A DNA stretch of 28,091 bases from an uncultured virus (IMG/VR IMGVR_UViG_3300011855_000048) (IMGVR_UViG_3300011855_000048:62001-90091); one strand, 5' to 3'; positions 20,335 through 22,640 are shown, counted from the first letter of the stretch. A program made the numbers and translations. Notes: generated by a model from the sequence alone, not told the origin.

Positions 20335-20655
20335 CTAATCCCACCCCAGCGGCCCCGGCCGCGCGCGCTCAGCCTTCAGGCCTATGTCCGCCAGTGTCTC
20401 TACCGACGCCAGGTACTCTCGCGATACCAGCACCGCTTCCGGCGGCGCCGCCTGCACACCCAGGAACGCCAGCTCCCGCGCCATGTCAGTGAAGTGGCCG
20501 TCAGACTTCCGCCGGCTGGCGGCAGACTCACTGATGCTCATGTGCTCCGCGTAAGCCTTCTGGCCGACCGATGCAAGACGGTTGAGCAAAATGCTTTCTA
20601 TCTCAGCCGGTTTGAGGATCGGCGGTTCTAACTTGCGTGCGATTGACTTCTCCAT
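20335..20655 (-). CDS. cII: CII-family transcriptional activator
   Basis: IESILLNRLASVGQKAYAEHMSISESAASRRK HTH; position after cro. Confidence 0.85.
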   Translation of the reverse strand: MEKSIARKLEPPILKPAEIESILLNRLASVGQKAYAEHMSISESAASRRKSDGHFTDMARELAFLGVQAAPPEAVLVSREYLASVETLADIGLKAERARPGPLGWD

Positions 20656-20672: not shown

Positions 20673-20885
20673 TTATCGGTGAGTAATTGAATTGAGAATT
20701 TCTGATGCGCTAACCTGACCGTCGGTAGCAATTACGATTGACTTGATAAACCGAGAACCGATTTCAGCGCCATTAAGCCACTTGCTAACGGTTGACTGGT
20801 TTACGCCTGTTTTTTTAGCCAGCTCAGTTTGAGAACCTGCGATTACGATGGCGCGCTTAATTGCCTCGTTAATGATGACGCTCAT
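20673..20885 (-). CDS. cro: Cro-like (YdaS-type) HTH regulator
   Basis: AGSQTELAKKTGVNQSTVSKWL; AGGAG RBS; divergent from cI. Confidence 0.88.
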   Translation of the reverse strand: MSVIINEAIKRAIVIAGSQTELAKKTGVNQSTVSKWLNGAEIGSRFIKSIVIATDGQVSASEILNSITHR

Positions 20886-20889
20886 AAAA

Positions 20890-20986
20890 ATTCTCCTCTG
20901 CATAATTTTTAAGTGATTATGCGTTAGGGAATTTAAATGATCAAGTCTTACGAGACTTTGACTTGTAATTCTTTAGGGAATATTTT
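20890..20986. promoter_or_regulatory. OR region: three operators, PR and PRM
   Basis: ATKC-N6-GMAT at 20890-20903, 20919-20932, 20968-20981; PR (minus) TTGATC-17-CATAAT at 20916-20944; PRM (plus) TTGACT-17-TATTTT at 20958-20986. Confidence 0.75.
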
Positions 20987-20993
20987 TCGGGGT

Positions 20994-21590
20994 ATGAAAA
21001 CACTGAAAGAAAGACTGGCTTACGCCATGAGTTCGACTGGCAAAACTAACCAGACCGAACTCGGAAAGCAGGCAGGGGTACCGCAGTCATCCATATCTAA
21101 AATTCTTCGTGGGGATAGCGAGACGTCTCGCCACTCAGGTAAATTAGCTGCTGCCTTAGGGGTTAGCGCTGATTGGCTGATTAATGGTTCAGGCTCGATT
21201 TTTGGAGAGTCAACCCAACCATTACAGCCCATCGATGTTTCGAAGAACGTAAGGGTATATGACGCGGAGGGATTTACTGGCGACTACCTATCCTGGTTTA
21301 GCGAGTTACCAGAACACTTCCGGGCATATGTTATTCGGGCAAGAACCGGCATAGCGCAAACTCCGGCCGGGTCGATAGTCATCGTGGATCCAAAAACAAC
21401 CCCGTCAGCTGATGATCTCGTATTGGTGAGGCTTAAAGAATCAGTATCCGTTTTTCGTTATCACATTGGGGGTGACGGAGATGGCTTTTTGTCGGTAGAT
21501 GACGCAAGGGTTCCATTGGCCCCAGTTTCAGATTCGAGCTCAATCATAGGTGCGATCGTCCAAGTTTTTATTCCTGAATTGAATAAGTAG
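20994..21590 (+). CDS. cI: CI-like repressor (HTH plus degenerate S24-like domain)
   Basis: TLKERLAYAM...QTELGKQAGVPQSSISKIL...LGVSADWL; C-terminal GSIVIVDP...IIGAIVQ. Confidence 0.88.
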   Translation: MKTLKERLAYAMSSTGKTNQTELGKQAGVPQSSISKILRGDSETSRHSGKLAAALGVSADWLINGSGSIFGESTQPLQPIDVSKNVRVYDAEGFTGDYLSWFSELPEHFRAYVIRARTGIAQTPAGSIVIVDPKTTPSADDLVLVRLKESVSVFRYHIGGDGDGFLSVDDARVPLAPVSDSSSIIGAIVQVFIPELNK

Positions 21591-21693
21591 ACAACCCTCC
21601 GATCTGATGCCTGGGCGCTTGCATATCTCCCGGGCCCCATCCTCACATACAAAAACCCCATAAACCCCTCCCAACATACTAACCTCAAAAATA

Positions 21694-21735
21694 CTGTATG
21701 CAAATACAGTGTACATCCTGAAACTCAGTATTCAA
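21694..21735 (-). promoter_or_regulatory. LexA box and convergent promoter pointing into cI
   Basis: taCTGTATGCAAATACAGtg at 21694-21709; minus strand TTGAAT-16-TACACT overlapping it. Confidence 0.8.
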
Positions 21736-21743
21736 GCAAAAAA

Positions 21744-21828
21744 ATCCCCACAAGAATTACGCAAAAAATCCTCATAGGAATATTTTTATAAAGTCTCTAT
21801 TGACTAAAATTATTCTCTATCGCATAGT
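21744..21828 (+). promoter_or_regulatory. OL region and PL
   Basis: Operator-like ATYC-N6-GMAT at 21744-21757, 21768-21781, 21812-21825; TTGACT-17-CATAGT at 21800-21828. Confidence 0.75.
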
Positions 21829-21909: not shown

Positions 21910-22128
21910 GTGGAAAGCAAAGATTTAGTGGTGATAAACGGTCAGCTTTGCAGCAAAGACATTGCGTTGCTGCTTATTGAGAAGACCTTACCCACCGTTC
22001 TTGAGGTGGTGGCAGAGAAGGTGAAGTGCGGAAGGCCTGATGCTGAGGTTAAAGAAGCGGCAGCAACTGTGGTTAATGCCGCTATTTCAGCAATTAGTTT
22101 GAAGAGCCTAATTGCTCCCAAAGCTTGA
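21910..22128 (+). CDS. First PL gene, 72-aa hypothetical protein
   Basis: GAGG RBS and GTG start. Confidence 0.6.
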   Translation: MESKDLVVINGQLCSKDIALLLIEKTLPTVLEVVAEKVKCGRPDAEVKEAAATVVNAAISAISLKSLIAPKA

Positions 22129-22288
22129 TAGATTCAGCGCTTTTTTCCTCTTCTCTTTTGGATAGAAGGGAGAGGAAATCAACTTCAGAGCGCTCTACTT
22201 CGGCAAGAAACTCTTCCGGAGTGACGTCATCTGGTTGGGTGGTGGCGTAGGCAACTGAAAGGAGCCAGGCCTTATCTTCTTTTTTCAT
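22094..22288 (-). CDS. 64-aa acidic protein, counter-oriented moron
   Basis: ATG 22288 (MKKEDKAWLLSVAYA...); extended -10 TGGTATGCT upstream at 22320-22328. Confidence 0.65.
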   Translation of the reverse strand: MKKEDKAWLLSVAYATTQPDDVTPEEFLAEVERSEVDFLSLLSKREEEKSAESIKLWEQLGSSN

Positions 22289-22372
22289 AGTTTCTCTTTG
22301 CTGGTTGTGTGGAAGCTCCAGCATACCACCGAGCCTGAAGTGGTGAAAAGACAGGCATAACGGGAGGAAATT

Positions 22373-22489
22373 ATGGTTGATTTCGCACGTAAACCGGCAC
22401 GCCAACAGGCCATTCGTCTTGGCCGCTGCGGCGCTGCTGTTCGCCGGCTCTGCTATCTGCTGGCGCAGAAGGGGGATCCAAATGCTTAA
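22373..22489 (+). CDS. 38-aa small early phage protein (not in ORF track)
   Basis: GGGAGG RBS; MVDFARKPARQQAIRLGRCGAAVRRLCYLLAQKGDPNA; overlaps next start. Confidence 0.72.
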   Translation: MVDFARKPARQQAIRLGRCGAAVRRLCYLLAQKGDPNA

Positions 22490-22640
22490 GAAATGCGCGT
22501 ACTGCCGCAAACCGCTCGAAGAGGGTCAGGAAGTCAAGATGACGATCCTCATCATTCAGGGCTCGCAGCTGCAGCCTGTGGAAAGGAAGTATTGCTCTAA
22601 GCAGTGCGGTCAATACGACCAGATGGCCAACGAGGCCTAA
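22482..22640 (+). CDS. ydaE: YdaE-family zinc-binding protein
   Basis: ATG 22482; KCAYC...RKYCSKQC..DQMANE resembles Rac YdaE; upstream of recE. Confidence 0.7.
   Translation: MLKKCAYCRKPLEEGQEVKMTILIIQGSQLQPVERKYCSKQCGQYDQMANEA

Follow-up and report, generated by a model that had tools for sequence, protein, structure and literature searches.

A conserved small gene behind a LexA box and antisense to cI is a candidate SOS antirepressor of a lambdoid prophage family

We describe a candidate SOS-induction module in the immunity region of an uncultured temperate phage (IMG/VR record IMGVR_UViG_3300011855_000048, positions 62001-90091). The DNA analyzed, hereafter the window, comprises 28,091 bases and forms the right-hand 28 kb of a 90-kb provirus record of a Klebsiella-type temperate phage. 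Just past the 3' end of its cI-type repressor gene (20994-21590, plus strand), a LexA box overlaps a candidate minus-strand promoter that faces back towards cI and precedes an open reading frame (ORF) of 66 amino acids (aa) at 21461-21661 (minus strand), which runs into the repressor gene from the opposite side. We propose, at a probability of roughly 0.6, that this ORF encodes a micro-antirepressor under LexA repression, and that its transcript acts on the strand opposite cI as well. A preliminary description of this DNA had read the region as an SOS switch that might work through a micro-antirepressor, an antisense RNA or transcriptional collision. The comparative evidence presented below, namely a conserved LexA-boxed module, a repressor without a catalytic dyad and a 66-aa ORF that evolves as coding sequence, therefore favors the first of these, and antisense pairing or collision may be additions to it because the transcript must run antisense into cI.

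The LexA box, CTGTATGCAAATACAG, is found at 21694-21709, starts 104 nucleotides (nt) beyond the end of the cI stop codon (21590) and is the only exact match to CTGT-N8-ACAG in the window. This loose pattern is not rare by chance, with at least one match in 25 of 100 shuffles of the window, so the weight of the box comes from its flanks and its conservation; when the flanks are included, 16 of 20 positions agree with the E. coli LexA consensus. The candidate LexA-occluded promoter (21708-21735, minus strand) consists of a -35 element TTGAAT (21735-21730), a 16-nt spacer and a -10 element TACACT (21713-21708). The -10 element shares two bases with the LexA box and the expected transcript start falls inside it, so that the overlap of box and promoter claimed in the preliminary description holds, for a promoter of moderate quality (8 of 12 consensus positions) that is supported by its conservation. 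The equivalent hexamers of close relatives read TGGAAT and mostly TATACT. A run of seven T residues (21744-21738, minus strand) lies upstream of the promoter. The absence of an obvious terminator between the box and cI was likewise borne out: in a terminator scan, both strands were free of terminator-like sites from the cI stop to the LexA box, as was the minus strand within cI. An inverted repeat noticed by eye at about 21609-21635 was rejected as a terminator, having no T-run, no report from the scan and no conservation in the wider family. A minus-strand "terminator" at 21781-21744 is probably a false positive, as it has three G-C pairs and coincides with operator repeats.

The ATG of the 66-aa ORF (21661) is preceded at a distance of 5 nt by the Shine-Dalgarno sequence GGGAGGGG (21665-21672, minus strand; core GGAGG, 21671-21667), and the coordinates of the ORF include its stop codon. 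The codons for residues 1-24 fall outside cI. For residues 25-66 the coding strand lies opposite the final 42 codons of cI together with its stop, giving an overlap of 130 nt (21461-21590) in which the third codon positions of the two genes coincide. Comparisons at short range used 22 loci with repressors 78-83% identical to the window cI, one of them in a Raoultella genome and another on a Klebsiella plasmid; together with the window these make up a close set of 23 sequences. Every one of them has this frame open over exactly 66 codons, starting at a conserved ATG that follows a GGAGG-type site. All 13 distinct 30-nt leaders keep the ATG and a GGAGG or GGGGG core, and the rest of the leader varies freely. 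The ratio of nonsynonymous to synonymous polymorphism (pN/pS) was taken over codons 2-23, which lie wholly outside cI, from the 16 distinct sequences among the 23. It was 0.32 in the frame of the ORF vs. 0.73 and 1.42 in the other two frames, and the variable columns at codon positions 1, 2 and 3 numbered 12, 11 and 20, each out of 22. These comparisons indicate that the 66-aa ORF is a real protein-coding gene. Searches for near-identical DNA gave no match in 50,697 phage records or 5,426 E. coli genomes.

Within the overlap (residues 25-66), pN/pS is 0.21, but this value is an artefact of the shared third codon positions; since these coincide, both the conservation and the low pN/pS of this part are forced by cI. 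The cI stop codon (21588-21590) dictates Tyr25 of the small protein: its TA, coming after a purine, reads TAY on the other strand. In the cI segment "...IVQVF...", the Val codon before Gln is by eye GTC in the 23 close sequences, which yields Trp34 in the small protein, and GTT would yield a stop; the use of GTC here may reflect selection that acted on the overlapping frame.

The preliminary description had proposed two ORFs with ribosome binding sites on this transcript, and both exist. The second, a 45-aa ORF (21540-21677, minus strand, with GAGG before its ATG), was rejected as a gene: an ORF of at least 35 aa occurs in its frame in only 4 of the 23 close sequences, the window included, and it matched no Pfam or PHROG family. 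The preliminary interpretation is thus partly supported: comparison backs the boxed module, the 66-aa ORF and with it the micro-antirepressor option, but not the 45-aa ORF. Longer starts of the 66-aa frame were also rejected (TTG at 21703, giving 80 aa), as they begin within the box or promoter and are not conserved.

The module extends well beyond the close set. A scan with a profile of the repressor yielded 80 viral loci, of which 54 (L058-L111) encode full-length family members of 194-198 aa with 37-83% identity; the remaining 26 have an intact S24 motif, or match in the helix-turn-helix (HTH) only. At 53 of the 54 family loci a minus-strand ORF of 55 aa or more starts with an ATG located 65-80 nt past the cI stop, and at the 54th (L110) the ORF is present from an in-frame ATG further upstream. 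Among the distinct family sequences tabulated, the length of the ORF is 60-71 aa and its start lies 68-77 nt beyond the cI stop codon. None of the 26 non-family loci has it. Similarly, a LexA box with at most one mismatch is situated 97-155 nt past the cI stop in 53 of the 54 family loci (exact in 11), the other locus (L097) having a LexA-like box with two mismatches; such a box was found in 2 of the 26 non-family loci. The N-terminal motif of the ORF, M-G-x-L-x-x-[RK]-x-x-x-G-x-[YF], can be followed to loci where cI identity has fallen to 37%, and little else survives across the family.

A distant member of the family is Yersinia phage vB_YenM_21.09, with a repressor 38% identical to the window cI. 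Its box, ribosome site and a 68-aa homologue of the small protein fall inside a 630-bp stretch that carries no annotation, and the best LexA-like site in this phage is the one behind cI (14/20). The record contains no annotated antirepressor or DinI. The phage is reported to have been recovered from a mitomycin C-treated culture (PMC9224151), although spontaneous release is also possible.

Three of the loci deserve mention at this map position. On a 276-kb Klebsiella sp. plasmid (NZ_CP170105.1; locus L022), cI and the 66-aa ORF are intact and the LexA box is halved by an insertion or rearrangement, the sequence beyond it, about 110 nt past the cI stop, being unrelated to that of the other loci; to judge from this arrangement, the plasmid prophage copy may have lost its SOS trigger. 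In IMG/VR loci L123 and L132, the two non-family loci with a box, which encode a cleavable cI with a GDSM motif, the perfect LexA boxes CTGTATGCATATACAG and CTGTATATATATACAG occur behind a cI terminator. Each is followed on the plus strand by a gene for 82-83 aa that has a ribosome site, the arrangement lying 130-440 nt beyond the cI stop, and SOS-controlled cargo at this position is therefore not unique to dead repressors.

The repressor itself appears to be unable to sense DNA damage in the manner of lambda cI. The 198-aa protein begins MKTLKERL and combines an N-terminal HTH with a C-terminal S24/LexA-like fold. It matches Pfam HTH_3 (E 1.3e-7), the PHROG 4 transcriptional repressor family (E 2.4e-21) and, by phmmer, lambda repressor (E 3.7e-5); Peptidase_S24 reached only E 0.06, with 13.5 bits vs. 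the Pfam cut-off of 23.3. Aligned with lambda cI and E. coli LexA, it has Ala121 at the position of LexA Ser119 and Arg155 at the position of lambda Lys192, and its hairpin reads Glu92-Gly93 at the place where cleavable repressors have Ala-Gly. Ser and Lys occur together in none of 32 distinct family proteins, and 53 of the 54 family loci are without at least one residue of the dyad. At these positions Ala and Ser replace one another among close relatives, as do Arg and Lys; hence the dyad is not under selection. Because the Ser-Lys dyad is missing, the alignment indicates that the repressor cannot cleave itself by known chemistry. Some clades still have Ala-Gly, which we read from sequence as a sign of descent from cleavable ancestors. 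The AlphaFold2 (AF2) model of the repressor has five helices and a beta domain, with a predicted local distance difference test (pLDDT) score of 88.5. Its top Foldseek match is the structure of phage 186 CI (2fjr, E 7.6e-8), and further matches include the C-terminal domain of lambda cI (1f39; template modelling score 0.71 on the target), LexA and UmuD'.

The small protein belongs to no named family. It gave no Pfam, PHROG or NCBIfam match at E values up to 0.1, matched two unnamed clusters among 5.8 billion, and in a profile search of 1.84 billion representatives retrieved 26 short unnamed proteins of 59-121 aa. A protein-atlas candidate, a cluster of 66-aa viral hypothetical proteins, was discarded, its best score of 0.83 being under the level that counts. 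Predicted by AF2 with 32 sequences, the protein forms a hairpin (residues 2-9 and 12-18) and a helix (residues 20-28) with block-mean pLDDT of 72-83, followed by a disordered tail. RNA structure was also considered. No consensus RNA pairs were predicted for the ORF stretch across 22 diverse family members, and the window transcript folded no better than shuffles (z = -1.48). Since the N-terminal motif survives across the family and neither a consensus pair nor a fold was found in the RNA, the constraint appears to fall on the peptide and not on RNA structure.

It is hypothesized that the module operates as follows. In a lysogen, LexA bound at 21694-21709 would cover the -10 element and start site of the minus-strand promoter; DNA damage would remove LexA, and the promoter would fire leftward. 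The 66-aa ORF (21661 to 21461) would then be translated from its strong ribosome site, and the conserved N-terminal 24-28 residues, with their predicted hairpin and short helix, may bind the CI-type repressor and so release PR and PL. The transcript would run at least 130 nt antisense into cI and would probably lower cI expression as well, by RNA pairing or polymerase collision. Control by LexA, binding of CI and induction by the 66-aa protein are what we infer here; some SOS-linked inducer seems to be needed, because the repressors of the family are without the dyad and yet one member was recovered after mitomycin C treatment.

Several observations weigh against this proposal. The minus-strand promoter falls below the 9 of 12 consensus positions required by the promoter scan and was not reported by it, so calling the site a promoter rests on its conservation and not on its strength. 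In most close relatives the box reads CTGT-N8-CCAG, one mismatch from canonical, and one clade has, on the minus strand, TACTAT...ACAGT (CTAT-N8-ACAG), also one mismatch away. The conservation of residues 25-66 is, given the shared codon positions, not independent evidence. Nor is the openness of the overlapping frame a strong sign of selection: with a stop rate of 0.027 per codon in that frame upstream, 42 open codons would be expected by chance with a probability of about 0.31 per lineage. In one clade the ORF has a shorter tail, for a total of 60 aa. Since the ORF and cI share the same DNA, a single origin and linkage, rather than function, may explain why the ORF accompanies the repressor family. 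The AF2 model of the small protein has a mean pLDDT of 64, which is modest, and a search with this model against 48,161 chains returned none at Z of 2 or above. One family locus (L102), the only one of the 54, keeps both Ser and Lys. Finally, a second LexA-boxed operon elsewhere in the record, in the position of the Gifsy antirepressor and discussed below, could be the real inducer in this phage.

One alternative is that the RNA is the effector, acting as a LexA-controlled cis-antisense transcript or by collision against cI mRNA, with the ORF incidental or serving to stabilize the RNA. The layout makes it certain that the transcript and the 3' end of cI overlap in antisense by 130 nt or more, with no terminator between, and in every tabulated family locus whose ORF has an ATG start, that start falls 68-77 nt past the cI stop, which means that the overlap is itself a conserved feature. 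The promoter of lambda OOP RNA is LexA-controlled. This antisense RNA is reported to promote RNase III-dependent decay of cII mRNA and to have had little or no role in lambda SOS induction (PMC2327240). We regard an RNA effector as unlikely here, in that the part of the ORF outside cI evolves in a protein-like manner (low pN/pS, third-position excess, conserved ATG and ribosome site), the RNA yielded no conserved structure in the searches above, and a reduction in new CI synthesis would leave already bound CI in place.

Alternatively, the small protein may be real and SOS-induced but directed at something other than CI, such as RecA/LexA modulation, exclusion or host physiology, in the manner of a moron. 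It has no homology to a known antirepressor in Pfam, PHROG or NCBIfam, linkage through gene overlap could by itself account for its co-occurrence with the repressor, and L123 and L132 carry perfect LexA boxes behind a cI that is cleavable. This explanation would leave dyad-less repressors, including that of the phage recovered after mitomycin C treatment, without the SOS-linked inducer they require. The Gifsy-type module that might supply one is missing from the relatives' records (phrog_1813 in 0 of 30, DinI in 1 of 30), and the box, ribosome site and hairpin motif are still present where cI identity has dropped to 37%. We consider such a role improbable.

A more elaborate version of the micro-antirepressor model would have the single LexA-gated promoter act on the repressor at two levels, through a hairpin micro-protein and through an antisense mRNA that blocks replenishment, as one inseparable locus. 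The micro-protein may imitate the vestigial cleavage-site hairpin of cI (residues 85-100, with Glu-Gly for Ala-Gly), and the mimic would dock onto the catalytically dead S24 domain and prise the repressor off its operators. If this were true, the overlap of inducer and target genes would lock the pair together through mosaic recombination and provide each immunity type with a private SOS trigger. We offer this version as speculation with rather low odds.

The second LexA-boxed operon raises a further alternative, in which induction proceeds through it and the module behind cI is accessory. The second exact box, CTGTACAAATATACAG (G000:34981-34996), stands immediately before a DinI-family gene (PF06183, E 8.7e-27); next comes a gene for an 80-aa protein of phrog_1813, a family without an assigned function (operon G000:C1:34449-34996; locus L138, 960-1516), 27 kb left of the window in the 90-kb provirus record. 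This order is Gifsy-like: the LexA-regulated operon of the Gifsy prophages is reported to consist of dinI, the antirepressor gene and an irsA homologue, in that order (PMC3121763). The 80-aa protein, however, has no BLASTP similarity to the Gifsy-2 gene after dinI, which we infer to be gftA from the gene order given in that paper (PMC3121763). Moreover, among 30 relatives' records, 21 of them at least 90% complete, phrog_1813 occurs in none and DinI in one, whereas the module behind cI is kept; the same search recovers phrog_1813 in G000 as a positive control. Because it is absent from nearly all of these records, the dinI operon is not part of the conserved switch, though it could contribute in this phage, and we judge it very unlikely to be the principal route of induction. 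That a chance ORF and a chance box stand here without function is scarcely credible, for although the loose box pattern arises in a quarter of shuffles and antisense frames over cI are often open, the box, promoter, ribosome site, ATG and hairpin motif are positionally kept at 53 of 54 loci with 37-83% cI identity, and the coding-type variation already contradicts it.

The proposed micro-antirepressor gene is embedded in an immunity region that has the lambda layout in mirror image, with the cI-type repressor on the plus strand and the cro-like (20673-20903), cII-like (20335-20655) and replication genes on the minus strand. Structural genes in the window are about 78% identical in DNA to Klebsiella prophages. 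The cI start was placed at 20994 and not at 20937 because the upstream extension is interrupted by a stop in a relative. Between cI and cro (20916-20993), a PRM-like promoter on the plus strand (TTGACT-17-TATTTT, 20958-20986) stands back-to-back with a PR-like promoter on the minus strand that faces cro (TTGATC-17-CATAAT, 20944-20916). The PRM-like promoter ends 8 nt ahead of the cI ATG, and the cI mRNA may therefore have almost no leader, as is the case for lambda PRM transcripts. On the far side, a plus-strand PL-like promoter (TTGACT-17-CATAGT, 21800-21828; 9 of 12 in the promoter scan) is divergent from the LexA-boxed promoter and near-invariant among relatives. Two OL-type operator palindromes with the motif ATYC-N5-RGAAT (21744-21757 and 21768-21781) lie between these promoters. 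The motif has six matches in the window vs. 0.67 expected; four of the six, at three sites, are in the immunity region, the third site (20968-20981, matched on both strands) falling inside the PRM-like promoter. As the first OL-type operator (21744-21757) is located 9 bp upstream of the -35 element of the minus-strand promoter, CI might additionally modulate this promoter. The first genes past PL encode small proteins assigned to PHROGs without an annotated function (21910-22128, plus strand, phrog_23495; 22094-22291, minus strand, phrog_22868; 22377-22640, plus strand, phrog_1520), and no N-like antiterminator was recognized among them. An 87-aa protein in this group matches an FCS-type zinc finger (PF04570, E 5.2e-5).

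If the micro-antirepressor model is correct, its consequences reach beyond this phage. In Klebsiella, Raoultella, Yersinia and their relatives, many lambdoid prophages have lambda cI-like repressors that are unable to cut themselves, and how these prophages sense damage is unannotated; a conserved, unannotated gene would then supply the missing SOS link. It would constitute a new sequence family among small antirepressors, in a layout in which the gene of the inducer overlaps that of its target on the opposite strand, so that protein and antisense effects should be separable by simple mutations. A search of the open-access literature yielded no account of a small, LexA-boxed gene that lies antisense to cI. 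The finding bears on forecasting which prophages are awakened by DNA-damaging antibiotics, and it is a reminder that gene callers systematically overlook short genes antisense to known genes.

Among known systems, Tum of phage 186 and AntC of N15 and phiKO2 are LexA-repressed antirepressors that act on repressors which are not cleaved. Phage 186 CI, the top structural match to the modelled window repressor, is inactivated by an antirepressor. The Tum protein exceeds the 66-aa ORF in size, and its gene sits at the right-hand end of the 186 genome, a long way from cI.

The antirepressors of the Salmonella prophages Gifsy-1, -2 and -3 and Fels-1 (GfoA, GftA, GfhA and FsoA; Lemire et al. 2011) are reported to be small LexA-boxed proteins that inactivate lambdoid-type repressors which stay uncleaved during induction, as is proposed here (PMC3121763). 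Their location differs: the Gifsy gene is reported to be part of a dinI-antirepressor-irsA operon 1.3 kb past the replication genes (PMC3121763), whereas here the small gene is beside cI, converges on the gene of its presumed target and overlaps it. The Gifsy repressors are also short, and the window cI keeps an S24-like domain. The best local BLASTP alignment between the 66-aa ORF and the Gifsy-2 gene after dinI has an E value of 0.026 over 17 residues in the cI-forced tail, too weak to be meaningful, and the Gifsy-2 gene matches phrog_4847 (E 1.3e-45), a PHROG the 66-aa ORF does not share, as it matches none. By sequence, then, the 66-aa ORF is not a member of the GftA/GfoA/FsoA family, nor is it in their location.

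Other systems share parts of the arrangement. Lambda OOP is reported to be a short RNA, transcribed leftward, which covers the 3' end of a lysogeny regulator's gene from the opposite strand and promotes decay of its mRNA (PMC2327240), but it is non-coding and targets cII, whereas the transcript described here carries a conserved ORF opposite cI and revealed no conserved fold. The transcription factor-small ORF (TF-smORF) modules of linear plasmid-like vibriophages, including Qtip, encode family-less proteins of about 55-80 aa that inactivate their own cI without proteolysis; they are reported to be SOS-independent, to be activated by a divergent transcription factor and to have cleavable repressors as targets (Silpe et al. 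2023, PMC10432266). The module presented here is instead LexA-boxed, has no transcription-factor partner and is antisense to cI. The Hex protein of phage 434, a modulator of SOS induction, likewise comes from an ORF that shares part of its length with the repressor gene; Hex is reported to be read from the repressor's own PRM mRNA and to prevent RecA-mediated cleavage (PMC3564112), while the ORF in the window lies on the other strand, and its presumed effect is to promote induction. By analogy, the proposed micro-antirepressor would belong to the functional class of LexA-controlled antirepressors that includes Tum, AntC and the Gifsy and Fels-1 proteins.

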